61,452 bases of DNA from positions 1 to 61,452 of IMG/VR virus record IMGVR_UViG_3300045996_001309; one strand, 5' to 3'. Source of the DNA: a virus. Taxonomy: Duplodnaviria; Caudoviricetes. The notes below the pieces were generated by a model, which searched no databases, had not been told where the DNA came from, and was given only the letters and a program-made list of their open reading frames with translations. Positions 1 through 46,436 of the stretch are shown one piece after another. The first letter of the stretch is position 1; every line of letters starts with the position of its first letter. The position numbers were made by a program, and so were the translations under genes.

Positions 1-155
1 GTGACCCCGTAATGAGCCACGGATAGTAGGGATCGTGCGACCGATGCCCCCCGGCGTTAGGGCCATTACCACCTGATAGATACACCGCTCCTGATGAATT
101 GTTGACGTTGGTCCCCACCCCGCCAGGAGGTGCCAGCATATCGTGTGTCAGACCT
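1..155. repeat. Terminal direct repeat, left copy (circular genome overlap)
   Basis: Bases 1-155 match 61298-61452 except at positions 23 (a/g) and 29 (g/a). Confidence 0.97.
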
Positions 156-2044
156 GTCAAGCTGATGCTCATAGTCGGGAATGGCGCACCGAGCGTAGCA
201 TACGACGCCCCGGCACCATCTGGGCCGTTGTTCAATGCCGGGATGCGACCAGTGCTCTCATTGAGTAATCCGATCCACGCCCAATGCATCTTTCCGAGCC
301 CAGCGGCGCGGGCTTGATTCCAACTGTTTTCGTCTTGTCGCAGCCAAGCGGTAGTTGCATAAGTGGGCAACGGTCCCTGTTGCGCCGTTGTCCCGGCGTT
401 TCCGATAATGTTTCCATTTCCAATCGCTGCGCCGGGACGGTAGAGATCGGTATCGCCACCAGCGCCGCCGCCTCCGCTTACGGTAAAGGCATCAGCAGTG
501 ATGTCCAGATCATATGGCGGAATCAGCCCGGCCGCTTGCCAATAAGTACGCTCGGCTGTGGTCAACTGTGACCGCAATTCGGGGCGGGTCACTGTCCAAT
601 TTGGATTGGCTGCGTCATCTGCCGCAGAATACCAGCCCTGACGATAAGCCTGACATATTCTTCGCGTCACCGTGAGCGTGCCTGATCCGGTCGCGGTTAT
701 GTCGGCTTGCGGGTCAAACCCGGTCGCTTGCACACCTGTCGCTCCGTTAATGTCAGGCCAGAAGCGGTAAGCCGATCCGGTAATTGGCCTGATCCAATAA
801 GGCTTGTTTGCGATCAGCCCAGTCGGCAACGTTCCGGAAGACGACACCGACACGCATTCCCCTTCCGTGAAGGGCGTAGACCCCAGATCCACCGTGTCGT
901 TTGCGATGCTGATGTTGGTCCCGTTTTGGGTTACGTTGACCGGGGCGCCCCAATTACGAACTGTAGAGCCGCCGTCCTTCAGCGTCGCGAAATACGAAGT
1001 CGCATCCAGCCCGACTACATTGAGCCAGGGCTGCATTATAAATGGCATATAAGAAATGCCGTAGACGCTCCCCGAATCGGTCGGGTCTGTGTAGACATCG
1101 ACGTACCAGCGATTCCACAGATGCGCCGTGTCTTCGCCGGCAACCCGCGTGATCGTGGCTCCACCTGAATGCGCCGCAGCCGTCGAGCCACCCGCACCGC
1201 GCGTCAGAAGGTTCAGCGTCGTGCCGTTCGTTACGGATACGAGCACATACTCGCTGTCGATCTTGACCATCTCGGTGCCGCTCGCAGCAAACGCCGCCGT
1301 TGAGCCGACTGTCACGTTGCCTGTCGTGCCGCTGGTCAGCGCTCCGGTTACTGTCGTGGTCGATGGCGTGTTATCGATTGCCGCTCCGTGAACCACAAGC
1401 CCGCGACGAACCGGCCCTGTAGCGACTACCTGGACGATGCCGTCAGCGATCAGCGTATTGAGCGAGGCGGTGAACGAGCCGCTCCCGAGAACGCCGTCCT
1501 CGTAGTGGCAGATGCCATCATTCGGCACTGTCGTGTACGTATAAGCGCACGGCCGCACGTCCGTGTATTCGATCTCGAAATCGTGCGATCCAGTGATATC
1601 CGCCGTCGTGCGGTTGTCGGTTCCTGGCGTGTATGCGCTCGATCGGCGATACCATTTTACCTGCTCAGTGCCGCCGGCAGAGATCGATGGCATGAACCTT
1701 GAGACGGAAGCGTGCCGGCACGAGCCGTCGTCCCATGTCGATACATCGTCAAGCTGGAATGCCCGCTCGGTGCCGTCCGCGTCTTTCGGAACCGGGTGAT
1801 TGGCTGTCAGGCAATCCGGCACCTCGCCGCGCTTCCAGACCATGCCGAATGTGTGCGGCACGATACCGCTGGCTGATCCAGAATCGTTTGTGATGGTTGT
1901 GGTTGCACCAGCCAACAGGACATCGCCGCCGCCGCCGCTATGCCCGCCGCGCTGGAACGGCGGTTTTGTGGATGCCGGGACAGCAGCGAGCATCGCTACG
2001 CAAGTCAAGCCGGTAAGCAGCGCGCGACGAGTGATCTTATTCAC
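1..2044 (-). CDS. 5' part of a ~1062 aa exported polysaccharide lyase-like fibre-tip enzyme (continues across the junction to 60153)
   Basis: Not in the ORF track. I read the frame by hand: GTG at 2044, no stop down to base 1, and in frame with the 60153..61436 ORF. Starts MNKITRRALLTGLTCVAMLAAVPAST-KPPFQRGGHSGGGG. PHTFGMVWKRGEVP...TWDDGSCRHASVS resembles the N-terminal domain of PcRGLX/YetA-like lyases. Confidence 0.8.
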   Translation of the reverse strand, partial: MNKITRRALLTGLTCVAMLAAVPASTKPPFQRGGHSGGGGDVLLAGATTTITNDSGSASGIVPHTFGMVWKRGEVPDCLTANHPVPKDADGTERAFQLDDVSTWDDGSCRHASVSRFMPSISAGGTEQVKWYRRSSAYTPGTDNRTTADITGSHDFEIEYTDVRPCAYTYTTVPNDGICHYEDGVLGSGSFTASLNTLIADGIVQVVATGPVRRGLVVHGAAIDNTPSTTTVTGALTSGTTGNVTVGSTAAFAASGTEMVKIDSEYVLVSVTNGTTLNLLTRGAGGSTAAAHSGGATITRVAGEDTAHLWNRWYVDVYTDPTDSGSVYGISYMPFIMQPWLNVVGLDATSYFATLKDGGSTVRNWGAPVNVTQNGTNISIANDTVDLGSTPFTEGECVSVSSSGTLPTGLIANKPYWIRPITGSAYRFWPDINGATGVQATGFDPQADITATGSGTLTVTRRICQAYRQGWYSAADDAANPNWTVTRPELRSQLTTAERTYWQAAGLIPPYDLDITADAFTVSGGGGAGGDTDLYRPGAAIGNGNIIGNAGTTAQQGPLPTYATTAWLRQDENSWNQARAAGLGKMHWAWIGLLNESTGRIPALNNGPDGAGASYATLGAPFPTMSISLTGLTHDMLAPPGGVGTNVNNSSGAVYLSGGNGPNAGGHRSHDPYYPWLITGS

Positions 2045-4262: not shown

Positions 4263-4269
4263 TCCGGCA

Positions 4270-5541: not shown

Positions 5542-5554
5542 TTCTGCCCTCCTA

Positions 5555-7237: not shown

Positions 7238-7238
7238 T

Positions 7239-7888: not shown

Positions 7889-8185
7889 GTGACAAACGAC
7901 GCTCCCAAGCCGGCCCCGCTTGAGATCACCATCAGGTTCGATCCGCAGCGTGTGCGGGCAATGCTGCGAAACCTTCGATCCTTAGCGCTCACGGTCGCGG
8001 CCGCTGGTGGCGCTGTTATCTACGCGCTGCGTCTGCCGCTACTATTCTTGGCGACACTCGCTTTCGCGGCCGTCTTGGCAGGCGTAACAGGCTCAGGAAG
8101 ATCCCTCGGCTTATTCGCTGCCGTGTGGCTGATCTACGGTGTATTTTGGCTTAAAGCTAGGTACTCGCCGCTGATCCGCGACTAG
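7889..8185 (+). CDS. Small membrane protein (moron, opposite strand)
   Basis: Three hydrophobic stretches. Lone plus-strand gene in the virion operon. Confidence 0.6.
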   Translation: MTNDAPKPAPLEITIRFDPQRVRAMLRNLRSLALTVAAAGGAVIYALRLPLLFLATLAFAAVLAGVTGSGRSLGLFAAVWLIYGVFWLKARYSPLIRD

Positions 8186-12834: not shown

Positions 12835-15587
12835 CAGCGCGCCATCTCATCGCTCTGGATCAGCGGGCTTTGAGTGGGAGGAATCTCGCCCCGCCGCAAT
12901 GCGCGCATCTCATCAAGCGTGCGCCGCCGCCCTTCCTGCCGACGCTTGTATTCCGCACTCGCTTCCCAGCTTGGTGCCCAGCGAAATTGACGATCCCAAC
13001 TACCTTGTTGGTTTTTCAAGTACACTTCATATGCTGGGCGGCCATCTGGGGCTGGCTTGTCGCTCGGCGCTAAAAGCAGGCGATCCGGAGTAACGGGTTC
13101 AGCCGTCATCGCGTTTGCCGTGAGTTCACCGATAAGCTGCTCGTTCATCCAGTCAGCATTCTCATCTTCGGAAAGTGCCGGAACGCCGTAGAATTTCTCG
13201 GGAGAGAATTTAGAATAGCGCGCACCCTCGCCGCCGACCCGCGTGCGTCCCCAGACGCGGCTGATCGTGTCCATCGCCCGGCTGCGCGCAGCATCCAAAT
13301 CGCCGGTTGCGATATACTCGCTCTTCGCCAACTCTCCGAACTCAGCCATCATCACTGGATCAACACTCGGGTCATGCCCCCATGTGTCTTTTTTGTCTTC
13401 AAGCCAACGGCGATCACTGCGCTCGCGGATTGTGCTGTCTTTGCCGCGCTCGTCGTCATAAGCCGCCTCGCGAGCCGCGCTCGTCGTTTTATCGACCTTT
13501 AGGCTCTCGACTGCGCGCTGCACCGCGATTTCTGGAGGCATGCCTTTGCGGTTGTTCGACAAGATTAACTCGCCGAAACGCATATCCTTTTCATCGCCGA
13601 TTTCACCGACAAGCTGCGGATTGGCGACACGCAGTTGCTCGATCGCATTCGCTGCCATCAGCGCCTGTTCCGGCCGACCGGAATGCAACCCGCCCCGGAT
13701 CATCTTTTGCAGCCCGTCCGGCACCAACCCATATCGAGCCGAGTATGCGATGGCGTTGGGGATCGCTTCTTCCGGCTTCCACGACGCCGATTCCTGGGCG
13801 TAATGCAGGTTAAGACCGAGCCGATCCTCCTTTGATTTCGGGTCCAGAGCCGGCCCGCCCGCGCCAGCCGAAGCGGCACGGTGCATCAGGCGGGAGACCT
13901 TAATCCGCTCCTCTTCCAGCTTAGCTTCGGCCTTGGCGCGTTGCTCCTGTATCCTGTCGAGCGTCATAATTCCCTGACGCTCCGCTTCTGGCGAGATATC
14001 TCCGACCCTACGTCGCTCTCTGATTTCCGCTTCCGTTATCTCCTCTCGGCTCGCCCGCAGGAGGATCTCGTTATTCGCCTCCGATTGCTCAAACTCAAAC
14101 TGGCGCTTGCTTTTCTCGACCCGACCAATGGCGATATTCTTGATTTCTTCCGGAGCATCCGACGCTTGAATGCGATCGATCTGCCCCTTCCAATCGGGGC
14201 GAGCTGGGGCTTCAGAAAGAGCCCCCTCGTCCAGCGGTATCGGCGCTCCGCTTGCGGGAGCTGCGTCAATCTCTGCGGATAGCGCGGCGTCTGTTGTTTC
14301 GTCAATGCGAGACGCAACTTGCGTAGGCCGCCCTCCCCCCATTTTTCGAGCGGTCGATTGCCGCAATCCGCCAGCAGTCATCCGCGCAAGTTGCGGGTTA
14401 GCGTCGATCACGTTCTCTGAAAAGAGATCGCGCACTGGCGTATCCGGGGCCGCCCTTAACACCTTTTCGGCACCAGCCGGTCCTAAGAAATGCGCCAGAT
14501 AGATTGCACCAGAATCTGTTGGGAGACCTTTCTCAGCCAGAAAGGATTTATTTTTTTCGGCATAAGCTGCCGTCATCCGGCGAGACAGGACGGGATTGTT
14601 TCGTAACGCCAACAATTCCGCGTCAGATTTCCCTGAAGCTACCTCGGGGGCTTCACCCTTGACCATTGACAGCCAAGTGGAATCTATAAATTGCCCCAAT
14701 CCGGTGGCAGACGAACGAGGGTTTTTGGCATCGGCACGGCCAGCGCTCTCAATCCCGATAATCCGATCAACTAAATCGCCACCGCCCTGGGTCCGCTCGT
14801 ACAAGCTGCGCCCAAGCTCCTGGTTAAGCTCTGGCCTGATGCCAGAACGTAGTCGGTTGAGCGTCGTCGGATCAAGGACGGGTGCAACTTCGTTGAGGAA
14901 TTTGTCAGCTTCGGCTACACGGTTATTCGAACTCAGCCACGCGAACCGCTCGACCGCAATCTTCTCTTGAGACTTCCTGATGAGCGCATCGGTCTTGGTC
15001 TTGCCGTGGATTGGCTCCAGATTGGCAAGAAGCTGCCCGAGAGATTCGCCTGCCGCACGCTGATGCCCCGGATCGTCCGCGCGAGCGGCGAGCTGAATAA
15101 GATCATCCGCTTTTTGCAGTACGCCCGCTTCCCAACGATCTTGCCAAATCCCAAGCTGCTTGGTATCAGCTAGGGCTTGCGCCCGAGATGCGCGTTCTTG
15201 CGTTCGAGCGGCCCATAAGGTTCGCGCTTCCGGATCAGTGATCCCGGCCCCGGCGCGGCTGACAAACTCCGGTATTTGCTGCGTGAGCGCCGTCAGTTTT
15301 TCTGGGTCGGTTTCGTTCTTTGCGGCAGCTTCCCAACGAATGAAATTGCCGGTGGCGTCAGCATCGGCGAGCGCCATCTCGATTCGGCTCCGCTTCAGCT
15401 TCTCGCGCTCTGCCTCTCGATTCTGATCCGCTGCTATAGCAAACCCTGTCGCGCCGAGCCGTTGCGTCTCGCGCCCAGCATCGACCAGCGCCGCCGCAGC
15501 GGGGTCACTCGTCGGATACTGCGGCAACGGTGTCGTGCTGCGCGGGTCGTTAAACCCGAGATCGGCGAACGTCGGGATGCGCGCCAT
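12834..15587 (-). CDS. Internal virion protein with a lytic transglycosylase-like domain
   Basis: IIGIESAG..AKNPRSSATGLGQFIDSTW and YLAHFLGPAGA motifs, plus synteny. Confidence 0.8.
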   Translation of the reverse strand: MARIPTFADLGFNDPRSTTPLPQYPTSDPAAAALVDAGRETQRLGATGFAIAADQNREAEREKLKRSRIEMALADADATGNFIRWEAAAKNETDPEKLTALTQQIPEFVSRAGAGITDPEARTLWAARTQERASRAQALADTKQLGIWQDRWEAGVLQKADDLIQLAARADDPGHQRAAGESLGQLLANLEPIHGKTKTDALIRKSQEKIAVERFAWLSSNNRVAEADKFLNEVAPVLDPTTLNRLRSGIRPELNQELGRSLYERTQGGGDLVDRIIGIESAGRADAKNPRSSATGLGQFIDSTWLSMVKGEAPEVASGKSDAELLALRNNPVLSRRMTAAYAEKNKSFLAEKGLPTDSGAIYLAHFLGPAGAEKVLRAAPDTPVRDLFSENVIDANPQLARMTAGGLRQSTARKMGGGRPTQVASRIDETTDAALSAEIDAAPASGAPIPLDEGALSEAPARPDWKGQIDRIQASDAPEEIKNIAIGRVEKSKRQFEFEQSEANNEILLRASREEITEAEIRERRRVGDISPEAERQGIMTLDRIQEQRAKAEAKLEEERIKVSRLMHRAASAGAGGPALDPKSKEDRLGLNLHYAQESASWKPEEAIPNAIAYSARYGLVPDGLQKMIRGGLHSGRPEQALMAANAIEQLRVANPQLVGEIGDEKDMRFGELILSNNRKGMPPEIAVQRAVESLKVDKTTSAAREAAYDDERGKDSTIRERSDRRWLEDKKDTWGHDPSVDPVMMAEFGELAKSEYIATGDLDAARSRAMDTISRVWGRTRVGGEGARYSKFSPEKFYGVPALSEDENADWMNEQLIGELTANAMTAEPVTPDRLLLAPSDKPAPDGRPAYEVYLKNQQGSWDRQFRWAPSWEASAEYKRRQEGRRRTLDEMRALRRGEIPPTQSPLIQSDEMAR

Positions 15588-16606: not shown

Positions 16607-19342
16607 CTATTCTTCTCTCTGAGACCGTGGTGGCGGCTGCCCCGGATCATTGCTCTCCATGTGCAGAACCAGACCCATGATCGTTGCGACATATGGAGAA
16701 GTGATCTCGATGCAAACCCGCGCGTCGCTGTCCCAACTGCCATTAAAAGCGCCCGGAACAGCATCATAAGCAGCGAGCATTTGCGGCGTCGTCAGTGCCT
16801 TTCCTCGATAAGTCGCGGGCAGGCCCGTAAGGTTCTCAAACTGCCGTCCGATCCGCAGCCCCCGCCATGTCAGATCGGCGGCCACGAGGCCGACGCGAGA
16901 AACGCGCTTCTGCCGGGTCAATGCGGTGCCGCTCTCTTCCCCATAGGCCAGTTTCGTTGTCTTGATCCGCCCGACATATGGCAGGCCGGCAACATAGCTC
17001 GTGGTCGGCGCCGGGAGAGGGCCTTGCCCGGTCCCGTCTAGCGTAATGACGGCAGATATCGGCTCGCCATTGCTCCATACCGCAACCTGTTTGTTCGCGA
17101 GATGGGGGAGCGACATGACTGTTGCGGCCACTCCACTATACGCAACATGCGAGTCAACCGTCTTGGAGACGGCACCACCGCGCGCTTCCGAGAGCTTCGC
17201 TAGTTTTTCGATAAAGCGCTTTGTTGTACCATTTATGATACGAGCTACCACGAAATAGACGCTATCTTCCGCCGCCCGAGCCAAGGTGGCGACCCTCTCA
17301 AAAGCGCCGTCAGTCGTCACCAGCGATAAAGATTCAAGCTCCTCTTTCTCGCTGTAAGTCAGCAGGCCCGCCGTGCCGTCAGTGAGTACTGACCAGTGGT
17401 GTGCGTTATCCGGCTTACGCGATACCGCCATATCGGCAATTCCGGCGGCGTACATCTCGGGCTTCAGACGATCCGCCGGGGCGCTGTCATAATCGATGCT
17501 GCCCGATGTCAGGGTGAGTTTGTGTAGCCTGTTGTCGGCGCCGGCATAGAGGCAGGCGCTTTGCACGCGCACCGCACGGACGGTTTTGGCGGCGCCATCA
17601 TCCGAGCACATGCGCGCGGTAAAGGCTGTGGGCGTCAGAGGCTCATCAAAAGCGTTGGACCGTATCGATATAATCTGCGATGCGGTGCCCGCCACGAGCC
17701 GCTGCATCGACATAGCCCAGCGAATAACGTCGGCGTTGCCTGTCGTTATTGTCCGATTGATGGAGCCGGCATCGCCCTCTAGAGTGTCGTCAAAAGATGC
17801 GTAAGCGTCTGAGGCTGAAAGCTGTGACTTGAGCTTCGGAAACCAGCTAAGACGGCCATCGTGGAGAGCCACTGCCGTGGGCCAGCCGCGATAGTCAGAC
17901 CATTCGCCCTCAGCCCAATCGCTTGTTGCCTCTGTGCCGCCAAGCTGCTGCAGCACATCCGCGCCAATCGACGTGCTGCTGGAAACCGCCGTAACCCGGA
18001 CAACCCCATTTTGGGCACTGCCGACATAAGTTAGCTGCGTCAGCGCAGAACCAGCAGCGTATGCTGTAGCGATCAGGCGGTAATAGATAATCTGATTGTC
18101 TAGGCCGTCGTCGTAGCTTTCGGAAGCTGATGTAGTGTAGGTCTTGACGGTGGCCCAATTCCCCGGCTCGGCAAGGGAGCGCTGCAATTCGATTGTGCCG
18201 CTCCACGACCCGTCTGCGATGATATCGATCGCAAAAGACCGCTGCGTTGCCGTCCCAGGCGCAGTTGAAGTCGCGTCGTGCCGGGTCAAGCCGGTGACGC
18301 GAATCTCGCCAGTTGCGTCATTCAGCGCAGCCAGTGTAGCGATCTTCAATTGCGAGCTGTGCGTCAGCCGGAACAAAGCTCCGACGTGCCCAGTGCGGAA
18401 TACCGGGCGACTAGCGGTTATCACTACGCTGCCGGTCGTGCCGGAAGCCGTTAGAGTCGTGCTCCCGATGTTGCCGAGCCGAAACGGTCCATCCTCTGTT
18501 TGATAGAGCCCGATGCCCCAGGACCGAGAATCGCTTGACCTACGCTCGATGCGACGCTGCTGAAACCCCTCACACGCAACGAAAATCACATCGCCCGAGC
18601 TGTCGTACCTGATAGCATCGAAATGCGCCTTGGTCGTGTACGGAACGGTGATCGTGACCAACCCAGCGGGCTCAACCACGATCGTATCGACGAATGCTTT
18701 GATGGTCTTGCTGTTAGACAGCCTGACCCAGAAATCGCCGGCCGGTGTAATCGCGAGGCTGTAATTGCCGGGAGCTAGCGTAACATCGAGATAGGTGTTA
18801 TCGCCAAGCGCCGTACCGATTTGTAGGTTGACATCGTTGCGTGCGACGATGATCCGAATGCCGTGCTCGACACCGGGATTGGCTACGACAACCTGCTGGT
18901 CAACCTGCGCAAAATTCGTGCCAGTGCCGGTCAGCCCGAGATACCCTCCGGTTTCCCAGGACGATACCGCGCCAACCTCATCCGAGTCTGTCCATCCCGC
19001 GAGATCAATGTCGAACCCGCCATTGTTTATGGTGGCGGTTACGGTCGGGCGCGCTATGAATACGTCATTGACCAGCACGAACATATTGCCGCCCGCCGTC
19101 ATCACGAGCAGAGCCGATTCAGTCTCGGAGTAATTGAACTCGCCTAGCCACGCTTCCAGATCACCAGGGACGCCGGCTATGTACTGAGTGCCGGGGCGGA
19201 ATTGCGTCGGGCCAAGAACGTGCGGAATGAAGTTCGTGTGCGTTTCGCTGGCAATCTTCAGCTTTGCCAGATCAATGCGAGCAAGCGCGTGACGGCTTAC
19301 CTCGCCGGGATTTAAAGAAAAAAGTCCAGCGTCAGTTGTCAT
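16607..19342 (-). CDS. Tail nozzle (tail tubular protein B)
   Basis: SLNPGEVS...RPGT N-terminus, GWPTAVALHDGRL, and VAGLPY...KRVSRV C-terminus. Confidence 0.88.
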   Translation of the reverse strand: MTTDAGLFSLNPGEVSRHALARIDLAKLKIASETHTNFIPHVLGPTQFRPGTQYIAGVPGDLEAWLGEFNYSETESALLVMTAGGNMFVLVNDVFIARPTVTATINNGGFDIDLAGWTDSDEVGAVSSWETGGYLGLTGTGTNFAQVDQQVVVANPGVEHGIRIIVARNDVNLQIGTALGDNTYLDVTLAPGNYSLAITPAGDFWVRLSNSKTIKAFVDTIVVEPAGLVTITVPYTTKAHFDAIRYDSSGDVIFVACEGFQQRRIERRSSDSRSWGIGLYQTEDGPFRLGNIGSTTLTASGTTGSVVITASRPVFRTGHVGALFRLTHSSQLKIATLAALNDATGEIRVTGLTRHDATSTAPGTATQRSFAIDIIADGSWSGTIELQRSLAEPGNWATVKTYTTSASESYDDGLDNQIIYYRLIATAYAAGSALTQLTYVGSAQNGVVRVTAVSSSTSIGADVLQQLGGTEATSDWAEGEWSDYRGWPTAVALHDGRLSWFPKLKSQLSASDAYASFDDTLEGDAGSINRTITTGNADVIRWAMSMQRLVAGTASQIISIRSNAFDEPLTPTAFTARMCSDDGAAKTVRAVRVQSACLYAGADNRLHKLTLTSGSIDYDSAPADRLKPEMYAAGIADMAVSRKPDNAHHWSVLTDGTAGLLTYSEKEELESLSLVTTDGAFERVATLARAAEDSVYFVVARIINGTTKRFIEKLAKLSEARGGAVSKTVDSHVAYSGVAATVMSLPHLANKQVAVWSNGEPISAVITLDGTGQGPLPAPTTSYVAGLPYVGRIKTTKLAYGEESGTALTRQKRVSRVGLVAADLTWRGLRIGRQFENLTGLPATYRGKALTTPQMLAAYDAVPGAFNGSWDSDARVCIEITSPYVATIMGLVLHMESNDPGQPPPRSQREE

Positions 19343-19344
19343 CG

Positions 19345-22335
19345 TTAAGGATCAATAACCGGCGGTCCGCTGATTGCGGTCGGCACATAATCTGAGTATT
19401 CGGTTGACCATGACCGTCCGCCACGAGCGGCGACAAAGCGGCTGCCGCGTCGCACAACACGGTCGCGCGCATCGTCAAGCTGCTCGGCCTCGCTACTCGC
19501 ATCCTTGTACATAGCGAGCTTTGCGGCAGCGAGATGTGCCATCGCCGGGTTGTTGCGCACTTCCTCGTATTGCAAGCGAGCGAGCACCGCGTCGCGGAAA
19601 TGTGCGGTCCACTTTGTCGAATCCAGCCCAAGACGCGAAACGTAGCGCACCGTGACCGGAGTGATATCAGCGTGGTAGGCGCCGCCAATATCGGCAAAGG
19701 GAATATCCGATCGCCTGACGTAAGGAGCTGCGCCGTGCTCGTAATAGACGCGCACCGTGCGAATAAGATCACTCGGCCAAATGTGGCGGTAAGCAAAGCT
19801 GTACTCAGAAACGCCGGTAGACAGCTCTGCCGGTAGCGGATCGCTAGTCTCTGTCAGCGTCGCAACACGTAGCGCAAACCGCCAGCGGCCTCCTTCCAGT
19901 TCACGCTGAACCGTCGTCCGATAGGAGCCGTCTAGTTGAAAGCGCAGCCAGTCGTCATCGGGGCGGCTCCACAAGCGCAGTGCTTCTCCAAAGAGAAGAT
20001 CGAACTCGCCGTGCTTGAGCTGACGCTCCTCCGGTCTCGACGACTGCAATTGCAAGAATGCGAGTACTGCGTCATCGACGTTCTGCGGCCACAGCGCCGT
20101 ATTAAGCGCCTCCGTCGAGACATAACGCGCCACGAATGTCTCGGCGTCCGTGCTCCAATCAGCCGATGTTTCACGGATATTTATTGGACATTCCTGCCCA
20201 TCCCAGGGGATGAACAGCGCGTGCGACTTGAACCAGTCGTCCGGCAGAGGATAGCGATATGGGTATCCATAGGCGGGGTCTGAGGGAAGCTGATCGACCA
20301 GCGACGAATACTGCCGCTCAGCTAATGCCCACCACCAATTACCTCGCGCCATGACGGCGGGTACATGACGGCGGAATGCGCCGCTAAGTTGGTGCTCAAG
20401 CCACGGGTCAGGAGGGTCGGCATAACCCTGGAGCGCGCCATTAAGCGTAATGGCGGCAGCAGTCACCGCCGCTTCCATTGTTTCGGCCGGCGCTGTCGCG
20501 AGAACGCAACCGGCGTAAACGGCCTGCATGTACGCGGCAGGCCACAAGCGCGCATCCATGCCGAGAGTGTCCGACATGAAATCTGCATAAAACGGCAAGT
20601 GCGATACATACCACTTGCCGCCCTGCTCCAGAATATCGATCGGGCGGCGCTCGCCTGAGTCAGTTAGCGTGTACAGCGCGCGGGTACGGGTCCACTCACT
20701 CGGAACCTCAACAGAGCGCGTGTACCCGGCAACATCGGTCACAACATCGGCGTCGCCCTCGACATGCGCCACACCGAGCCGCATCGCAAATCGCCAAAAT
20801 GCACGCTCGTGCATTTCCCTGGAGACGCGCGCAAATACACCACTTTGCTGGTACGGTAGCCACGCATCAAGCGGCTCTCCATGCATCGCAAGCGCGGCGT
20901 CTCGTGCCGCGCGATATATGGTTAGCGCATGCGCCTTAGCTTCACCGGGAACCGCCGTGCGCCACAGCAGCCACGCCCGCAAAGCGTCAACAAACGAATC
21001 AGGCCAATTCTCAGGGTTCATCCCAGAGATAGACGACGTATAACGCAGCATAACCGGCTCGGTCGATGCCGCGTTGACATAAAAATTCCCGGCCTCCTCC
21101 CTAACATCGACAGGCGCCCGGTTGCGCACCGGGTCATTCCCAACTTGGTATAGGGCTAGGGTGGAGAGGAAGTCGGCCGGTTTTTCAAATCCCGTATTGT
21201 AGCCAGACGGCGGCGTGGCAGCGACAGTAAGGGGAACGGTAAGCGCCGCAAATCGCCAAGCACCATCAGATAGAACCTCGCGATTACCGCTTAAAAAATC
21301 CCCGCTAAGCTGGAACGGAAGCCAGAAATCATCGGGATCGGCAAGCAGGCTCTTTGCCAGCAAAACAGCCTGATACCATCCAGGCACACCTTCCTTGTTA
21401 TCGCCTTCGGCCGGCATCTGCGGCCGGCCAGCCTCAAGGTACGCCAGCATCGCTGTACGGAACGGCTCATCCCAACTTACGCTGCGCGATCCCTGTGTCG
21501 AGATATAGCGCGCTCTGAAGCTAGTCCTGTCAGTTGACCACTGGTTGCCGTGCTCTTGAATATGAAAAGGAAGGTCTCGCTCGTCAGTCGATACGATGAA
21601 CAGCTTATGAGTACGGAGCCAATCGTCTGGCTTCTCAAATGAGAATAGCAACTCGGGAGACGGCGTTCCGGCCTGCACCGAAATCGACAAGGTTCGCATG
21701 GCGAACCGCCAGAAAGCGTGGCGCAGCAAATCAAGCGCGCCTCGTTCCATCTCGCCATTGCGCTGATATGGCAACCAGCGATCTTCCGGCTCGGCGTCAA
21801 GCTCCCTTGCTCTCTCCAGATATTGACTGAAAAGCTGCGACATGCGACCAGCCGCATTCGGCTCGCCAGTGACGCGCTCAGCTATCAAGAAAGCGAGATA
21901 CGCCGCGACGGCCTGCGCAAAGCTCTCGGGCCAAGGATGACTGACCTGTTCAGGATCAGTGAAAGCCGAACTAATGTATCGCCAATAGATCGTGCCGGTA
22001 TCGTTTAACGATAAGCTCGTACCGTGTTCGCGCAAATCGATCGGGTGCTCACGGCCATCAGAGCCGCCCACCGTAAAGATCGCGTGCGTGCGCAGCCAAT
22101 CAGCCGGGCGGCTGAAAGTGCGGGTAAACCCGGGAATCAGTGTCCCGCCAATGGAGGGCGATACTGTCTTTAGCGCGAAACGCCACGGTGCTTGGCGAAG
22201 CACAAATTCCGTTGCTTCGGGATATGCGTCATCTAAGTGATAGCGCGTCTCTACGTCATCGGTAATAAGCGTAAAGCGGCTGTCCGCAAGGAGTCTGGCC
22301 GCATCTCCGTACAATCGTAGTTTTGTTGCGGCCAT
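19345..22335 (-). CDS. Head-tail adaptor (tail tubular protein A) made of six tandem domains
   Basis: Six copies of a WRFA...P.DWLR...Y.S...WP..F..A unit, located directly upstream of the nozzle. Confidence 0.85.
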   Translation of the reverse strand: MAATKLRLYGDAARLLADSRFTLITDDVETRYHLDDAYPEATEFVLRQAPWRFALKTVSPSIGGTLIPGFTRTFSRPADWLRTHAIFTVGGSDGREHPIDLREHGTSLSLNDTGTIYWRYISSAFTDPEQVSHPWPESFAQAVAAYLAFLIAERVTGEPNAAGRMSQLFSQYLERARELDAEPEDRWLPYQRNGEMERGALDLLRHAFWRFAMRTLSISVQAGTPSPELLFSFEKPDDWLRTHKLFIVSTDERDLPFHIQEHGNQWSTDRTSFRARYISTQGSRSVSWDEPFRTAMLAYLEAGRPQMPAEGDNKEGVPGWYQAVLLAKSLLADPDDFWLPFQLSGDFLSGNREVLSDGAWRFAALTVPLTVAATPPSGYNTGFEKPADFLSTLALYQVGNDPVRNRAPVDVREEAGNFYVNAASTEPVMLRYTSSISGMNPENWPDSFVDALRAWLLWRTAVPGEAKAHALTIYRAARDAALAMHGEPLDAWLPYQQSGVFARVSREMHERAFWRFAMRLGVAHVEGDADVVTDVAGYTRSVEVPSEWTRTRALYTLTDSGERRPIDILEQGGKWYVSHLPFYADFMSDTLGMDARLWPAAYMQAVYAGCVLATAPAETMEAAVTAAAITLNGALQGYADPPDPWLEHQLSGAFRRHVPAVMARGNWWWALAERQYSSLVDQLPSDPAYGYPYRYPLPDDWFKSHALFIPWDGQECPINIRETSADWSTDAETFVARYVSTEALNTALWPQNVDDAVLAFLQLQSSRPEERQLKHGEFDLLFGEALRLWSRPDDDWLRFQLDGSYRTTVQRELEGGRWRFALRVATLTETSDPLPAELSTGVSEYSFAYRHIWPSDLIRTVRVYYEHGAAPYVRRSDIPFADIGGAYHADITPVTVRYVSRLGLDSTKWTAHFRDAVLARLQYEEVRNNPAMAHLAAAKLAMYKDASSEAEQLDDARDRVVRRGSRFVAARGGRSWSTEYSDYVPTAISGPPVIDP

Positions 22336-22342
22336 CTAACCC

Positions 22343-22780
22343 CTACCTCCGTGCCTCAAATTCGGCAGCTTTCTTCGTAGCAGCCGCCCGGTCAGGCAGG
22401 CCCCGCGCCAGCTCGTCCTTGCCGCGCATGACGAACCAATTGCGAACGCTGTCGTGATCGACAATGATCTTGCCGTCTTTTGACGTAGATGATCCGCCCA
22501 TGTTCAGGCTTCGCGGCTTGCCGCGCTGCACAACTTCTGCCCAAGCCCCGTAGGGGTCGAGCGCGACGACGCGCAGATCAGCATCGATCGTGTAGTCGTC
22601 ATTTGAGACTTCGATGATCGTCCCAACCTTGAGCACCGGGACAACGTGCGTCCAGTATTCGGGATCGGATAACAAATCATCGAGAGACACGCCGAGCGGG
22701 AGCTTGTGCTCACGGAAATCGCGCGCAAACTCTCCATACGCCAAATGTGTAGGACGGAAATTCGAGGGGATCTTGGACAT
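22343..22780 (-). CDS. Hypothetical virion-module protein
   Basis: ORF between the capsid and adaptor genes. Confidence 0.65.
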   Translation of the reverse strand: MSKIPSNFRPTHLAYGEFARDFREHKLPLGVSLDDLLSDPEYWTHVVPVLKVGTIIEVSNDDYTIDADLRVVALDPYGAWAEVVQRGKPRSLNMGGSSTSKDGKIIVDHDSVRNWFVMRGKDELARGLPDRAAATKKAAEFEARR

Positions 22781-22836: not shown

Positions 22837-23118
22837 TTAGTCCGAGTTGGTAACGGCCACTGCCGTGCCATCGCTCAGATCGCCCGCTCCGGTTGTAGCG
22901 TTCACGGTACGAACGACACACCACTGCGCAGTCGGAGTCGCCGTATCGACCACAAACACGAGGTCCATGACCTTCATGCCCATGTCCTTGGCATTTGAAA
23001 TGTACCCTGCGGTGTTCACGTCAGCGATGGCATCGGCTGATTTGTACGTCCACCACCGATGATCACCCATTAGAGATGGGCCAGCCATCAGGAACAGATT
23101 GTCCTTATCATAAGCCAT
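22837..23118 (-). CDS. Small capsid-associated (decoration-like) protein
   Basis: Follows the MCP gene before the terminator, with a strong GAGGAG RBS. Confidence 0.6.
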   Translation of the reverse strand: MAYDKDNLFLMAGPSLMGDHRWWTYKSADAIADVNTAGYISNAKDMGMKVMDLVFVVDTATPTAQWCVVRTVNATTGAGDLSDGTAVAVTNSD

Positions 23119-23140: not shown

Positions 23141-23995
23141 CTACGCAGACAGGCCGGTGTCGTCGAACTGGAACTTGATGATCCCGGCATTCTGCAATTT
23201 CACGCTGCCGTGATAAATCGTCGTCCGACGAAAGGTGTAGTCATCCTCCTTGTTGTAGTCCAAGAAGGGCTGTACCCCGTCCGTGGACACGGCGTAGCCG
23301 ACCGCTTCCTTGTGATAGATGAAATTGGTCGAGGATGACGTTCCGGCGCCGGGCAGATCGGGATGAACAATCCACTCGAAACCCATGAACATCGTCCGCA
23401 TTGTCGGGCTTGGAACACCCTTATCGACCTTCTTGCTGCCGGTATAATCCACGCTGGTAAACTGCGGAACGTTCAACACCATGTAGTTGTAAACAGCCGG
23501 GGTAACGACAGCAAAGAGATTGCCGGTTGTGTACAGACCAACCTTGGCATTGTACAGCATGGTCGAGGCGCGAGCGATGGCCGTCATGACCTCCTGCGGA
23601 ACAACAGTTCCGAGTGTCACTGTGCCGGTTTCGAGCGCGTCGATGATGATCTCATCCTGCTTGCGGTGAATAACCGCGAGCGATTGATACCTCATCATTT
23701 CGAGCTGCTTATCGCTCGCCTGTGCTCGAAAGATGTTGAAGTTGGTCATAATCACCTTGTCGTGATCTTCACGAAAGGTGAGCGTGACCGTGCTCTGAAC
23801 GTTGTCACCGGGCGGGATCAAGCCGCGAGGACCGCGCGTTACCGCGGTGCGACCTCCGGAACCGGAGACGAGAAAGATCGTGCTGCCGCCGCGATCTTGT
23901 GAATCGGTGCGAACAGTCGGCGGCAAGGTTGCTTGTTCAACCTCATACGCCTTGATAAAGTCTTGTTTATAGATGGCTTCTTGAACGGCACTCAT
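23141..23995 (-). CDS. Major capsid protein
   Basis: Follows the scaffold gene. RKQDEIIIDAL, FMGFEWIVHP and YHKEAVGYA motifs. Confidence 0.85.
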   Translation of the reverse strand: MSAVQEAIYKQDFIKAYEVEQATLPPTVRTDSQDRGGSTIFLVSGSGGRTAVTRGPRGLIPPGDNVQSTVTLTFREDHDKVIMTNFNIFRAQASDKQLEMMRYQSLAVIHRKQDEIIIDALETGTVTLGTVVPQEVMTAIARASTMLYNAKVGLYTTGNLFAVVTPAVYNYMVLNVPQFTSVDYTGSKKVDKGVPSPTMRTMFMGFEWIVHPDLPGAGTSSSTNFIYHKEAVGYAVSTDGVQPFLDYNKEDDYTFRRTTIYHGSVKLQNAGIIKFQFDDTGLSA

Positions 23996-25433: not shown

Positions 25434-25748
25434 CTAGGTTGTTGAACGCCTTTGGCGTACTCGCTCAGCGGTAGATATCCGACGTTCGATAGGAGACGGA
25501 CCCTCCGGTATCGGCGAGCGCACGATGTCTTGAATCTGTTGACCTACGTAGTGCCGACCGTTCCACCAATTCGCCGTAGCCACATCCGCCGGCTGACATG
25601 CCGACAAGCGGTTGATTCCGCAAAGCTGCTCAATTATGAATGAGCACGCCATCTTGTGCGCCTCGTCCGCGAATAGCGCCTTCAGCGCGTGTCGCATAAC
25701 ATCGGAGCACTCGACACGGGCAAGGGCTTCAGTTTCTCGAAGGGTCAT
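25434..25748 (-). CDS. Bbp19-like small protein
   Basis: Directly follows the portal gene. NGRHYVGQQI resembles the EGRR.VG..I motif. Confidence 0.6.
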   Translation of the reverse strand: MTLRETEALARVECSDVMRHALKALFADEAHKMACSFIIEQLCGINRLSACQPADVATANWWNGRHYVGQQIQDIVRSPIPEGPSPIERRISTAERVRQRRSTT

Positions 25749-27451
25749 TACGCGGGGCCGTAGACCATGCTGCCGTCAGCAGCCTCGCCCGCGCCTACAT
25801 CGGTAAGCGTGGCGGCGGCCTCGGCGCCTGTCTTGGCTACGTCGGCGATCTGACCGGCGACGCCGAGCTGTTGCAGGAATTGCTGAGCTTGATCGCTTTC
25901 TTCGACAGACGCAGCCGTGGTCTGGTCATCATTCAACCAATCAGCAGGCGCGCGAATGCCGCGCGTCACGCTGTCGATCATGTTGATGAAATTGATCCGC
26001 TTCGGTGCATTCTGGTCAAACTGCGCCGCACCCGCTATGAGCGGCATGATCTGCGCCGCTTGGTTCACGCGATTAAGATCGATCGCGTCGCGAAGCGGGT
26101 TTTGGAAATCAAATACCCGCTCGCTCTCCATCAATTCTTCCGGTATCGGGACGCCACGGAATATCCCCATGTCAATCGCCACCCAGAACACCTCTTCCAG
26201 CAGCATGCTCAACCCAGCCTGCCACGGTGAGAATAAGGGCAAATTCTCTCTGATCCACTGCTCGACAAGCACGCTCGTTTCGTAAGCGGTCTTCGACTGT
26301 TGCGGGAGGCGGATCTTTGAAAGATACCAGTTATCCTTCATCGCAATTGTCGCGCGCATTATCAGGTCGAAGCCGATCGGGACGTTGCGATTATTTGGCA
26401 GCAATGGCTCGATCGCTGGCCCAAGGCGCTCGTCATAATCCCTGTCAACCCAGGTGATTCCGCCGGCAGACAAATCGATATCGCTCTTAACGGCGCCATC
26501 GACAGCCTTTAGCGGGCCGTCCAACGACTTTTCGCCAGCCTCCAGCAGCACTCGCGCCATGATCTGCATGCCGCGCGCATCGGCAATAGCCGTCATCGCT
26601 GCCGGCGAGTACCCATATTGCGACCCCGGTATCGTCATCCAGCGATCAACGACGTAACGAAAGCGCTCGCTCGCCCCTTCGCGCAACAACTTGCTGTGAT
26701 CGCTGTCATAATAAATCGAGGCCCACGGAGCTTGCCTGCGCTTTTGCCCACGCGGCTTTTGGTAGTAATCGTACTCAGAGGCCGGCATCATGACGTGGCA
26801 GAGATTGAACTCCTTGTCTGGGTCACTCTCCAGCGCTTCCTTGATGCCATCGGCCAGCTCGGCCTTTGGGAATTTCTGCTTGATGTGCCGCGCCGCCATG
26901 CGGAGCTTGCGGAACATCACGTCCGGCTTAATGCCGGTAATGTCCATGTAAAATGCGCAGTCGCGCGGGTGCCAGCACCGCATCACCGGAACCCGGTCGC
27001 CGTAGCGATCTATCTCGGACTCCGGGGAGATAATGTGATATCCGAAATTGACGTGATCACCGTCGCCTTCCTTGGTCGCGCGCTGGAACCCGTTCCTGAA
27101 ATCTCCCAGGAAATTGAGCCAGCGCTTATTGATGGCGTCCAAGGAACGAGCAATGTGCGGTTGCTCGTTCAGCTCCTCGTCCTGCGTCTGGACGCGGTTC
27201 CACTCCTGCCCATCGGGGCGCAACATCGATGAGCGCGCATCAGCGAGATCGCGAGCACAGCGCAAGGGCTCGCTGTCGAAGAGGTCCAGCGCGAACTCTT
27301 CGCCAAGCGTGCGCTCACCCATGAAGTCGGCGCGAACCGGGTAGAAGTTGAGAGCAAGCTCCTGGTGGAGGGAGTCAAGTCCACTCTTCGCGCTGAACGC
27401 CCTCTCCTCGCGCTTCTTCAGCTCGCGCGCGTTGTCGTCAGAGCTAGACAT
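25748..27451 (-). CDS. Portal (head-to-tail connector)
   Basis: 567 aa with RW...GSQYGYSPA and KTAYE motifs of T7 gp8/BPP-1-like portals. Confidence 0.92.
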   Translation of the reverse strand: MSSSDDNARELKKREERAFSAKSGLDSLHQELALNFYPVRADFMGERTLGEEFALDLFDSEPLRCARDLADARSSMLRPDGQEWNRVQTQDEELNEQPHIARSLDAINKRWLNFLGDFRNGFQRATKEGDGDHVNFGYHIISPESEIDRYGDRVPVMRCWHPRDCAFYMDITGIKPDVMFRKLRMAARHIKQKFPKAELADGIKEALESDPDKEFNLCHVMMPASEYDYYQKPRGQKRRQAPWASIYYDSDHSKLLREGASERFRYVVDRWMTIPGSQYGYSPAAMTAIADARGMQIMARVLLEAGEKSLDGPLKAVDGAVKSDIDLSAGGITWVDRDYDERLGPAIEPLLPNNRNVPIGFDLIMRATIAMKDNWYLSKIRLPQQSKTAYETSVLVEQWIRENLPLFSPWQAGLSMLLEEVFWVAIDMGIFRGVPIPEELMESERVFDFQNPLRDAIDLNRVNQAAQIMPLIAGAAQFDQNAPKRINFINMIDSVTRGIRAPADWLNDDQTTAASVEESDQAQQFLQQLGVAGQIADVAKTGAEAAATLTDVGAGEAADGSMVYGPA

Positions 27452-28701: not shown

Positions 28702-30225
28702 TTATTTGCGCCATTGCGCAGCGTGGCGCATATACCGCTTAACGCCGCTATACCCGACATTCGCGCGGGCCTGCCTCGTCGCGTTGGAAACCGCAATCTC
28801 AGGCGCCCTTATGAACTCCAAGCCGCGCCCTATCAGCGAGCACACATCAACCACGTCATCATGCAGCCCAGCCGGGAAACGCAAAAGCTGCCCAAGCACG
28901 TCCGCTTTCCACGGCGCGAGATACGGCACGTACACCTTGCCACTTGCAGCCATCGCCTGAAACGGGCGACACCGTGTCGCCTTGTCATGCATGCTCGCCA
29001 GCCATTCCAGACGGCACCATGCATGGCGCTGTTCCATGCGGTTACGTAATGACGCTTCGATCGCTAGCTGAATAACGCCTTTTTCGCCAAACCAACATGC
29101 CGGCTTGTACTGGTTAATCAAGTTACACTGCGCATCGATCCATTCGTCTGGCGTCGTTTGCCCCCGCCACCAATCAACGATATGGATATTCGATTGATGA
29201 TCTATCCCGAATATACCGTGCTCGGTCCAATCACCCTTGCCTTCGCTCACCGCGTAATCGCTTGCGCCGTAATAGGTTAGCGTGCCAGAGCGGTCCTCTG
29301 GACCTAGAACATTGAACCAGTCTCTCTTGAAATAATCACCGTCCTCGCCGGTTGGCTCGCCTTGGTACAGCGCATTCCAAACGCGAGTATCACGCTTTGC
29401 GTCCTCGACCATTTCGGCCGTGAACCAATCAGGCCACAGGCGTTCGCCGGGCTTGCGGCCCAAAGGATCGTCAGGGCCGGCTTCCATCTTTAGGTGGAGG
29501 ACGGTCCATTTCGGACCTTCGTAAAGCAGGATTCGACCAGCTAAGTCATCTTCGTGCCAGCGGGTTGTGACAAACGCCTGCTTCGAGCCGGGCTTCAGCC
29601 GGGTAAGAAAGTCGTTCAGCCACCATTCCCAGGCGCGCTCGCGCATGCGGTCGCTATCGGCATCTTCTCTTGACTTGACTGGATCATCGATAATCCCGAC
29701 ATCGGCCCGCCGGCCGGATACCGCGCCCCCGATACCGACCGCAAAGTATTCGCCGCCTTTCTCAGTAATCCAGTGATCGGCGGCCTTGCTATCTGCTTGC
29801 AGGCCAACGCCAAACACTGCGCGGTGCTCGGCCGACCCATAGATGTTGCGAACGCGGCGACCGAATAACTCTGCCAGATCATGCGTATGACTTGCAGCGA
29901 TGATGTTCTGCTCTGGATGCCTACCCATGTACCATGCCGGGAACAGCACGGAGACGTTCGTAGACTTGGCGCTTCCGGGCGGCATGATCACCATCAAGCG
30001 CTCGATGTCGCCACGCTCGACTGCTTCCAGATGCTCGATAAGCAGGTGATGGTGCGCGGCTGGCTGTATGCCGATGTCTAGGAAATTGACGTACAGCGCC
30101 ATGCGCGCTTGCGCCGCTTGCTTGTGAAAGGCGAGTAATTCGGCTGGCGAAAAGCCACGGAGCAACGCAGCAAAGGCCGCCGGATCGGTGTCAGGCGGAA
30201 GGCTGGCTAAGGCTTGATCTAGCAT
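28702..30225 (-). CDS. terL: Terminase large subunit
   Basis: MPPGSAKS Walker A, IIDDP Walker B, TRWHEDDLAG, and FPAGLHDDVVD nuclease motif. Confidence 0.96.
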   Translation of the reverse strand: MLDQALASLPPDTDPAAFAALLRGFSPAELLAFHKQAAQARMALYVNFLDIGIQPAAHHHLLIEHLEAVERGDIERLMVIMPPGSAKSTNVSVLFPAWYMGRHPEQNIIAASHTHDLAELFGRRVRNIYGSAEHRAVFGVGLQADSKAADHWITEKGGEYFAVGIGGAVSGRRADVGIIDDPVKSREDADSDRMRERAWEWWLNDFLTRLKPGSKQAFVTTRWHEDDLAGRILLYEGPKWTVLHLKMEAGPDDPLGRKPGERLWPDWFTAEMVEDAKRDTRVWNALYQGEPTGEDGDYFKRDWFNVLGPEDRSGTLTYYGASDYAVSEGKGDWTEHGIFGIDHQSNIHIVDWWRGQTTPDEWIDAQCNLINQYKPACWFGEKGVIQLAIEASLRNRMEQRHAWCRLEWLASMHDKATRCRPFQAMAASGKVYVPYLAPWKADVLGQLLRFPAGLHDDVVDVCSLIGRGLEFIRAPEIAVSNATRQARANVGYSGVKRYMRHAAQWRK

Positions 30226-30432
30226 CTACAGAATATCCGGATCGCACTGGTCCAGCGCATTCCAGCTAGGAACTAGAGCAATCCGCTGCTTGAATGCTCG
30301 GGCGAATTTGCGCGCGACGCGACAGGACACAGAGCAGCAACGGAACTGCTTGAAATGCACTCGGCTAACGCCTCTCGGCCGATCGAACAGTTTACCGCAT
30401 TGCATGCAATGCTTTTGATCGCATGCCTTCAT
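30226..30432 (-). CDS. Small Zn-finger protein
   Basis: CMQCG...CCSVSC. Confidence 0.55.
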   Translation of the reverse strand: MKACDQKHCMQCGKLFDRPRGVSRVHFKQFRCCSVSCRVARKFARAFKQRIALVPSWNALDQCDPDIL

Positions 30433-30731
30433 GGTGCCGGCATGGGTTCCTGGGCAGGCTCTGCTGGCGCCGGGTCTGGCTCTGGCGCCGGGTCTACTGG
30501 CGCCGGGTCTGATGCCGGGTCTGGCTCATCTTCCGGAAGACGAGCCCATAATTCGGCCGACTGCCGCTCGTATTCTGCACGACGCAACAGAAGCTCGGCG
30601 GCAGTCTGTAAATGCACCGCATCACAGGACAACAGCGCCTTGGCGACTGCCTTCAGGATTCTATCGTCCTGCTCGGTCGGAACTCGATCGACGAGCGGCG
30701 GCAGCTTGTCGGGATTATTCGATTGCGCCAT
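30429..30731 (-). CDS. Hypothetical protein with a Pro/Asp-rich tail
   Basis: GGAGG RBS and DPAP repeats. Confidence 0.55.
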   Translation of the reverse strand: MAQSNNPDKLPPLVDRVPTEQDDRILKAVAKALLSCDAVHLQTAAELLLRRAEYERQSAELWARLPEDEPDPASDPAPVDPAPEPDPAPAEPAQEPMPAP

Positions 30732-30742
30732 TAGCCTCCCTC

Positions 30743-30861
30743 TGTCGCACTAGACCCTGCCCCACTGTCGCTGTCGCAGCATGCCCGAAAACTGTCGCAC
30801 ACGAATCTGATCTAAGCCTATGCGACACAATGCGCCAAACGTCCTAGAATCTATTGCGACA
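30743..30861. repeat. Cluster of TGTCGCA heptamers in direct and inverted orientation
   Basis: TGTCGCA at 30743, 30772 and 30793. TGCGACA at 30821 and 30855. One variant at 30766. Confidence 0.7.
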
Positions 30862-30862
30862 C

Positions 30863-31384
30863 TCAGGATTGCTCGGCGTCATCGTCGATATCGCTGGCGC
30901 CGTCGATGCTGTGTTCTATACGTGCGGGCGCGCGCGAGGGACGCGAGCCGGGTGCGGCAACCATCAACATGATCGCTTGCGCAATCCTGTCAGGATTAGC
31001 CGCGCGCTCGGGAATGAGGGCTGCGCCGTTCGCGCCAGTCATTTCCAAACGATCGCCAAACTTGCGCGGATACAATTTTGAAGCCAGCCATTTGCGATTG
31101 TCCGCCGCCAGCTTTGCCGCTTGTACTGTCGCGGTATCTGTCGCGTCGCGCACACTATCAGAAATATCAATTATATCGTCAGCGTAATATTCTACCTGCA
31201 TTTCTCTCGCACGCGCGTAGCGAGCGCCAAACCCGTTAATGTCCTCAACAGCCCATCGCTTAACGGTCGCAGTGCTGGGCATTTCTCGATCGAGACAAAT
31301 CTTATTCAAAGTCTCGCCCAACGCCAGACGCAAGCATACCTTTGTGGCGATATCATCTGAATAATCAAACGCGCGCGAGCCCAT
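30863..31384 (-). CDS. terS: Terminase small subunit (Sf6 gp1-like)
   Basis: GETLNKIC..MPS..TV.RW, YARARE and RKWLASKLYPRKFGD motifs. Confidence 0.92.
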   Translation of the reverse strand: MGSRAFDYSDDIATKVCLRLALGETLNKICLDREMPSTATVKRWAVEDINGFGARYARAREMQVEYYADDIIDISDSVRDATDTATVQAAKLAADNRKWLASKLYPRKFGDRLEMTGANGAALIPERAANPDRIAQAIMLMVAAPGSRPSRAPARIEHSIDGASDIDDDAEQS

Positions 31385-31472
31385 AAAACCTCATCACCAT
31401 CATTACGCGCGTCAAGCAGCGCAATCACCCACAACCAAAGCGTCGCGCTCGCGCGCGTCACTAATAGTCTCT

Positions 31473-32675: not shown

Positions 32676-32686
32676 AAATGATATCC

Positions 32687-33688: not shown

Positions 33689-33698
33689 ATTACCCTAT

Positions 33699-43610: not shown

Positions 43611-43660
43611 CGAGCATGCCCCGTGCGGGGGTTGCTAGGGTCTAGGAAACCCTGGCAACC

Positions 43661-44329: not shown

Positions 44330-44343
44330 AGCACAATTCTCCT

Positions 44344-46434: not shown

Positions 46435-46436
46435 TG

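Follow-up and report, generated by a model that had tools for sequence, protein, structure and literature searches.

Head-tail adaptors of phages are treated as single-domain proteins that form fixed 12-mer gaskets between portal and tail. The contacts made by one of them, T7 gp11, are described in the available sections of PMC6702177: the gp12 nozzle hangs from the bottom of gp11, its platform bound by the acidic residues E26, D35 and D39 in the alpha1-alpha2 loop of gp11. At the C-terminus of gp11, an embracing helix surrounds the portal stem, and the portal clip is held between that helix, the fiber dock and the alpha4 end (PMC6702177, same sections). We examined the adaptor gene of IMGVR_UViG_3300045996_001309, a virus record classed as linear (CheckV completeness 100%). 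The complete record of 61,452 bases was analysed and is called the window below. The gene is almost certainly the phage's only head-tail adaptor, of the T7 gp11 or 'tail tubular protein A' type, and encodes a single chain of about 110 kDa with six diverged adaptor domains, referred to as U1 to U6.

19345..22335, minus strand: tandem adaptor gene (protein P0001), 996 amino acids plus stop, open throughout, with six gp11-type units
22346..22350, minus strand: GGAGG ribosome-binding site, read from the sequence, 10 nucleotides before the adaptor ATG at 22335

Six copies of a W[RW][FW]A motif were located in the adaptor, at amino acids 51, 209, 360, 514, 667 and 818 (WRFAL, WRFAM, WRFAA, WRFAM, WWWAL and WRFAL), together with five copies of a WL.[YFH]Q..G linker at amino acids 187, 338, 492, 645 and 796. 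Unit borders were set by cutting the protein at each linker tryptophan, which gave units 1-186, 187-337, 338-491, 492-644, 645-795 and 796-996. The six units aligned in register, with pairwise identities of 24.3-34.7% over 146-152 columns. In a leave-one-out comparison, a hidden Markov model (HMM) built from five units gave the sixth 75.8-113.7 bits; the top score among 200 shuffles of each unit never exceeded 7.6 bits, and the repeat is thus far beyond chance. The six-unit concatemer with these motifs and five linkers, proposed in the initial annotation, was borne out by motif positions, register alignment and leave-one-out HMM alike. Its figure of about 160 amino acids per unit needed correction: internal units have about 151-154, while an N-terminal helix extends U1 and a C-terminal tail extends U6. 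Tandem Repeats Finder reported 0 rows for a DNA-level tandem repeat in the adaptor gene, which indicates that the duplications in the window's copy are old.

The units were identified as gp11-type adaptor domains by several routes. PHROG 394 ('tail protein', profile length 190) matched the adaptor in 5 stretches with an E value of 3.8e-64. A profile of the six units matched the 'Connector Protein' chain 8ck1_E in the PDB (E 0.0025), named as the adaptor Carin-1 gp46 in the available part of PMC13730344. The whole protein searched with phmmer against PDB sequences reached only E 0.11 to the same chain, and the unit profile was needed for the stronger match. When the adaptor was compared by tblastn with 50,697 phage records, 3 records matched, all through U1 only; two of the three matches are annotated 'tail tubular protein A' and come from Pelagibacter phages (E 6e-4 and 8e-4).

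Structural comparison gave the same assignment. An AlphaFold2 (AF2) model of the adaptor, made from a 40-row alignment, had a mean predicted local distance difference test score (pLDDT) of 87.5 and a predicted template modelling score (pTM) of 0.53. Foldseek matched this model with probability 1.00 to more than 20 solved podophage adaptors, including those of Carin-1, LME-1, SU10, A4, PhiM1, VP1, N4, DEV, Pa223 and GP4 as well as T7 gp11 and KP32 TTPA. Template modelling scores on the target were 0.67 for 8ck1_E and 9efk_AA and 0.46 for T7 gp11 (7box_N). VIA-align gave Z 16.0 for 8ck1_E (root-mean-square deviation, rmsd, 3.2; 183 residues aligned), Z 13.7 for 9efk_AA and Z 9.8 for T7 gp11. By the AF2 model, Foldseek and VIA-align, the fold is an up-down helical bundle into which a beta 'fiber dock' domain is inserted. 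U1 and U6 have direct structural matches, and U2-U5 are assigned through their homology to U1/U6 and the same secondary-structure pattern. Together with the gene's position, these results uphold the earlier view that the repeats are gp11-type adaptor domains. No second adaptor-like sequence was found elsewhere in the 61-kb record.

Adaptors of the T7 gp11 type (8ck1_E, 9efk_AA, 7box_N, 6r21 and KP32 TTPA, 5mu4) share with each unit the helical bundle and the beta 'fiber dock'; a C-terminal tail, PHROG 394 membership, a gene position between capsid and nozzle, the tail tryptophan and the motifs at the alpha2 start are shared as well. The known adaptors matched are 181-259 amino acids long with one domain, whereas the window's adaptor has 996 amino acids and six domains. 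Unlike these proteins, its internal units are without alpha1 and without the tail. The parts of the array are as follows.

21778..22335, minus strand: U1, amino acids 1-186; the only unit with helix alpha1 (amino acids 5-20) and an alpha1-alpha2 loop; best match of solved and single-unit adaptors
22258..22335, minus strand: alpha1 and acidic alpha1-alpha2 loop (..TDDVE..), amino acids 1-26; absent from U2-U6; putative nozzle role by analogy with T7
21325..21777, minus strand: U2, amino acids 187-337; middle-type unit starting WLPYQRNG
20863..21324, minus strand: U3, amino acids 338-491; middle-type unit starting WLPFQLSG
20404..20862, minus strand: U4, amino acids 492-644; middle-type unit starting WLPYQQSG
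19951..20403, minus strand: U5, amino acids 645-795; WWWAL variant; conserved penultimate unit type in 36/39 relatives
19348..19950, minus strand: U6, amino acids 796-996; conserved last unit type with the sole C-terminal tail
19348..19464, minus strand: C-terminal tail, amino acids 958-996; pLDDT below 50; ..GSRFVAAR.. where single-unit adaptors have ..GxWVxxR..; putative portal role by analogy with T7

The AF2 secondary structure placed two N-terminal helices in U1, at amino acids 5-20 and 27-48, and a single helix of about 17 residues, corresponding to the later alpha2, at the start of each internal unit. The internal units therefore start about 28 residues later and are without alpha1 and the alpha1-alpha2 loop. 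The nature of the junctions was apparent from a MAFFT alignment of U1 plus linker, U6 and sixteen single-unit adaptors. The linker tryptophan aligned with the conserved tail tryptophan (..G.W[VA]..R..) of the single-unit adaptors, where U6 has ..GSRFVAAR.., and the following L.[YF]Q..G aligned with their conserved alpha2 start (R[YW].LD). At every junction, then, the beginning of a canonical tail is joined to alpha2 of the following unit. Around the five junctions, 10-residue blocks averaged pLDDT 90-95. If the T7 contacts carry over, U1 alone would keep the contact with the nozzle, and the segment after U6 alone that with the portal; the two would be made from opposite chain ends.

To establish how unit number varies, relatives were collected and their units counted with the unit HMM. 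A word-indexed search gave 39 relatives of 550-1725 amino acids. Among these and the query (n=40), three proteins had 3 units, 18 had 4, six had 5, six had 6, one had 7, four had 8, one had 9 and one had 11. The closest relatives differ from the window's adaptor in number: P0003 has 5 units, of which the last two share 85% and 89% identity with U5 and U6 of the window, and P0002 has at least 7, with an N-terminus that looks truncated. An exhaustive profile search of 1.84 billion representatives returned 1493 proteins at E <= 0.001, and the best 150 of these 1493 ranged from single-unit adaptors of about 200 amino acids up to a 2416-amino-acid protein with 16 units. In a set of 175 proteins, in which the ranking by total score favours members with many units and a few members are possibly partial, the counts were 22 proteins with 1 unit, 33 with 2, 40 with 3, 40 with 4, 17 with 5, 12 with 6, two with 7, six with 8, and one each with 9, 11 and 16. 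Two or more units were present in 153 of the 175. The 16-unit protein, P0041 (predicted, 2416 amino acids), is the longest relative found; its alpha1 region at the N-terminus is normal, and its C-terminal tail is short.

Each unit of the 39 relatives was then typed against the six units of the window. The first unit was U1-type in 39/39, and the last two were U5-type and U6-type in 36/39, the exceptions being P0023, P0032 and P0040; between these ends stood 0 to 8 units of U2/U3/U4 type. The typing gives a family formula U1-(middle)n-U5-U6, with n = 3 in the window. Mean pairwise identity among the six 6-unit proteins was 48% for U1, 49% for U6, 41% for U5 and 36-42% for U2-U4; U1 and U6 are the best conserved, and U5 lies within the range of the middle units. 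Recent copies were seen in several relatives: in P0007 the third and fifth units were 94% and the fourth and sixth 64% identical, in P0006 the second and fourth were 62% and the third and fifth 64% identical, and in P0005 unit pairs were 77-78% identical. Judged by such identities, which extend to P0004 and P0023, the number of middle units grows within lineages, frequently by two units at a time. Duplication in steps of two may mirror a structure that repeats every two units.

The adaptor gene lies in a structural module of T7-like order: terminase large subunit, portal, scaffold-position protein, major capsid protein, a 93-amino-acid open reading frame (ORF), a 145-amino-acid ORF, and the adaptor, followed by a gp12-type nozzle, a 126-amino-acid ORF and gp14-like, gp15-like (with a transglycosylase domain) and gp16-like internal virion proteins. 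The adaptor gene starts 7 nucleotides past the stop of the 145-amino-acid ORF, and the nozzle ATG is 2 nucleotides beyond the adaptor stop. The members of the module that enter the comparison of loci are listed here.

25748..27451, minus strand: portal, 567 amino acids; phrog_332, 1.1e-57; PHROG label 'head-tail adaptor' for the T7 gp8 type
23141..23995, minus strand: major capsid protein, 284 amino acids, between the scaffold-position gene and the 93-amino-acid ORF
22837-23118, minus strand: 93-amino-acid ORF; phrog_18004, E 1.5e-24, function unknown; between the capsid gene and the 145-amino-acid ORF; present in 8/8 related loci
22343-22780, minus strand: 145-amino-acid ORF; phrog_26742, function unknown; directly upstream of the adaptor; present in 7/8 related loci
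16607..19342, minus strand: gp12-type tail nozzle, 911 amino acids; phrog_376, 5.8e-110; 8ck1_A 'Tail Nozzle', 3.5e-19

Eight related viral loci, with adaptors of 3, 3, 3, 4, 4, 4, 5 and 8 units, showed a common order of capsid gene, 93-amino-acid ORF, the 145-amino-acid ORF where present, and adaptor, the capsid gene being upstream in 8/8. In 7/8 the nozzle gene followed the adaptor gene, and its product was 39-52% identical to the window's; the eighth contig ends inside the module. The nozzle was complete in six loci, at 897-916 amino acids, and the portal in two, at 562 and 566 amino acids, compared with 567 in the window. Unit number thus varies (3, 4, 5, 8) while the sizes of the partners remain constant, which counts against a fusion of ring positions and in favour of stacking.

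We tentatively favour an arrangement in which twelve parallel chains form n stacked rings and make a neck of adjustable length, a geometry that we infer and to which we give a little less than an even chance. We prefer an axial arrangement as the simplest in which both end contacts are used and the middle units can be of any number. The twelve chains would assemble in parallel on the portal with the U6 ring seated on it, and each earlier unit would form a further 12-fold ring below, lining the channel. The truncated tail of one unit would grip the next unit in the chain, which would take the place that the portal has for a canonical adaptor; the hexameric nozzle would be carried by the U1 ring. 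The length of such a segmented neck or tube would be set by the number of middle units and be altered readily by duplication within the gene, often in two-unit blocks; tail length would then be genetically tunable, presumably to suit how thick the host envelope is. Somewhat more doubtful is the fuller claim that the tail tube itself is built from adaptor, as n stacked dodecameric rings whose number (1-16 rings) is fixed by the repeat number of one gene.

Stacked rings draw some support from the models. Single-unit adaptors superposed on U1 of the AF2 model reached with their C-terminal part into U2 (ranges 1..206-209 and 3..293-332), and the same reach, to 312-332, was seen in the Atlas model of the adaptor. 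On this soft evidence, U2 would lie on the side of U1 that faces the portal. The net charge, acidic in all six units (-1 to -10), was also counted for stacked rings.

Several observations weigh against this arrangement. The alignment ranges record first and last residues only, so that the position of U2 above U1 is soft. U2 might instead be as far from the axis as the T7 embracing helix, which is outside the portal stem; successive rings might then widen, and this could not go on over 16 units. The predicted model of a six-unit relative in BFVD superposed at an rmsd of 71.6 Å over 1196 columns, which means that the geometry between units is predicted inconsistently, and the pTM of our AF2 model is only the 0.53 given above. 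Two matches of crAss001 adaptors to U6 start inside U5 (model 716/718..956/960); the last helix of one unit may complete the next bundle in these matches, which would be lateral rather than axial packing. As to the identity of the units, PF17212, the gp11 family ('Tube'), was without a match to the adaptor at E <= 0.1 in a Pfam scan; a Pfam-A scan of the adaptor and nozzle proteins returned no family at that threshold, and on the nearest Atlas clusters PF17212 is a minority label only (14-26% of members). A complex prediction for side-by-side association of middle units, with three copies of U3-U4 (amino acids 338-644, 6-row alignment) and run without controls, scored 0.00 and 0.17 against a mark of 0.42 and bears on no model.

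The alternative that survives best is that twelve chains each place one unit, U1 or U6, in a canonical ring while the others project outside the channel as twelve beaded arms; these would be a collar gripping the capsid, or several 'fiber dock' tiers carrying different fibres or spikes. We consider this unlikely, though by no means negligible. U1 is a complete canonical domain with a full four-helix bundle, and single-unit adaptors, PHROG 394 and PDB adaptors all match it best. The C-terminal extension of canonical adaptors runs toward the portal stem and the capsid outer surface in the available portions of bioRxiv 10.64898/2026.02.16.706137 and PMC6702177, and added units could follow it. 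Adaptors with extra, presumably external, domains exist in cultured Vibrio phages: VP2 (Q6RCF4, 741 amino acids) and JSF9 (A0A2D0YMN7, 504 amino acids) carry an adaptor domain inside an 'Ig-like domain-containing protein'. One adaptor unit was matched in each (168-173 alignment columns), and the extra mass is Ig-like by name, whereas in the window it consists of further adaptor units; the Vibrio phages thus show a different route to a larger adaptor. The window also holds many large fibre or spike candidates, and a free arm tolerates any unit number.

Arms would, however, require one unit to make both ring contacts minus one of the two elements, because the nozzle- and portal-binding elements are on different units at opposite chain ends. 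The first and the last two unit types are kept almost everywhere while the middle number is free. A receptor-binding tip usually shows the reverse, and the pattern seen here suggests conserved phage partners at both ends of the chain. The T7 groove beside the embracing helix is filled by the capsid wall, according to the same sections of PMC6702177, which leaves little room for 150-amino-acid domains. With rings or with arms, the neck architecture is one not seen in any solved phage returned by the fold searches.

The initial annotation had proposed that six units lie side by side, so that two chains fill the twelve positions and close a two-fold dodecameric ring of non-equivalent positions, and had offered extra stacked rings or radial arms as the alternative. 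It is the alternative that we favour, and ring fusion appears very improbable. Six does divide twelve, and each unit position is individually conserved among 6-unit orthologues, as expected for non-equivalent ring positions. In phage T5, the fused tube domains of pb6 form pseudo-symmetric rings, a tandem duplication of a ring-forming virion domain that was likewise counted for ring fusion; the fused domain number of pb6 is fixed and divides the ring order, whereas adaptor unit number varies freely here among close relatives. Numbers of 1, 2, 3, 4 or 6 account for 147/175 proteins, but a predominance of small numbers is what any decreasing distribution gives.

Divisors of 12 had been expected in relatives under this proposal, with arbitrary counts named as the outcome that would speak against it, and 1-9, 11 and 16 units were seen. 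The number did not divide 12 in 28/175 proteins (5, 7, 8, 9, 11 or 16 units), five-unit forms (17) were commoner than six-unit forms (12) with no dip at 5, and the closest relatives have five and at least seven units. Loci with 3, 4, 5 and 8 units share gene order, with complete nozzles (six) and portals (two) of the size found in the window, and a 16-unit chain cannot fit a 12-position ring. With a portal-type tail and a nozzle-type loop on one unit each, a lateral ring would leave ten of its twelve positions without each contact. Domain number, in short, was neither constant nor always a divisor of 12, and the contacts between layers were not on every unit, in conflict with a fused ring.

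Least probable of all is a polyprotein cut at the W-L-x-[YFH]-Q linkers into six adaptor monomers that form one or several ordinary rings: the linker motif does show the strong conservation that cleavage sites can have, but this is accounted for by the homology of the linker to two motifs of ordinary adaptors (the tail tryptophan and the alpha2 start), the junctions are modelled as ordered, U2-U5 once cut would be without alpha1, nozzle loop and tail and so not equivalent to adaptor monomers, and no protease family turned up among the 26 window ORFs, a part of the total, scanned against PHROGs.

Multi-unit adaptors were sought in deposited phage genomes by tblastn of P0001, P0105 (3 units) and P0066 (2 units) against the 50,697 records, and none was found at this sensitivity; the three queries matched 3, 3 and 1 records, each over a single unit (18-43% of the query). 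A full-text literature search for tandem or fused phage adaptors, in which subscription journals and supplements were not covered, found nothing among the papers listed. The multi-unit relatives in public databases are only proteins of uncultured viruses, 'hypothetical' or 'uncharacterized' where named. These relatives (P0002-P0098 and others, including A0A516M5L4 with 1139, A0A516L4P3 with 583 and A0A6J5LSM0 with 512 amino acids) have the same tandem architecture and the same end units, with the same gene order where DNA is known and a unit number of 2-16. A sizeable uncultured lineage has its adaptor as a tandem array of variable length, and the family is a natural series (3, 4, 5, 6, 8 ... 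units) with the same partners.

If the rings do stack, the repeat number of a single gene would encode the length of the tail. This would be relevant to the question of how short tails could give rise to long ones, and to the way in which phages adjust their reach to the envelope of the host. A non-contractile tail would then be made and tuned in a manner unlike that of tube protein plus tape measure, and would be intermediate between those of short- and long-tailed phages.

The 145-amino-acid protein encoded upstream of the adaptor was considered as a hidden second adaptor and rejected, its AF2 model (pLDDT 73.6) being without the adaptor fold. Its best structural match was a small LME-1 capsid chain, 9eg4_H, with Z 6.8, below the reliable level; from this model the protein may be a candidate capsid decoration or cement protein. 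The far side of the nozzle gene holds the ejectosome-type genes.

8182-15587, minus strand: ejectosome-type genes, comprising a 917-amino-acid protein at the gp15 position with a transglycosylase domain (phrog_4067, 9e-26) and a 1550-amino-acid gp16-type protein (phrog_342, 2.1e-110)

Past the gp16-like gene, four large ORFs of 615, 423, 741 and at least 701 amino acids occupy 2-7402 on the minus strand. None had a PHROG match at E <= 0.001, and by position they are candidate fibres or spikes. Two tail-fibre- or spike-like genes lie away from the main tail module, at 31473-32675 (phrog_2234, 4.6e-08) and 32687-33688 (phrog_4492, 4.2e-45), in a stretch of low GC content at 30000-34400 (0.49-0.54, against about 0.58-0.61 elsewhere in the window). 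This stretch may be a swapped receptor-binding cassette.

No tRNA genes were found in the window. A scan of 185,579 species genomes for prophages or hosts carrying adaptor relatives gave 77 pattern matches and no relative. The replication and recombination genes at 40113-48112 on the minus strand are unlike those of T7 and include a primase (phrog_6088), a Cas4-domain exonuclease (phrog_1990) and a Sak4-like annealing protein (phrog_124). Two ORFs resembling HNH endonucleases were seen at 45353-46228 and 47351-48112.

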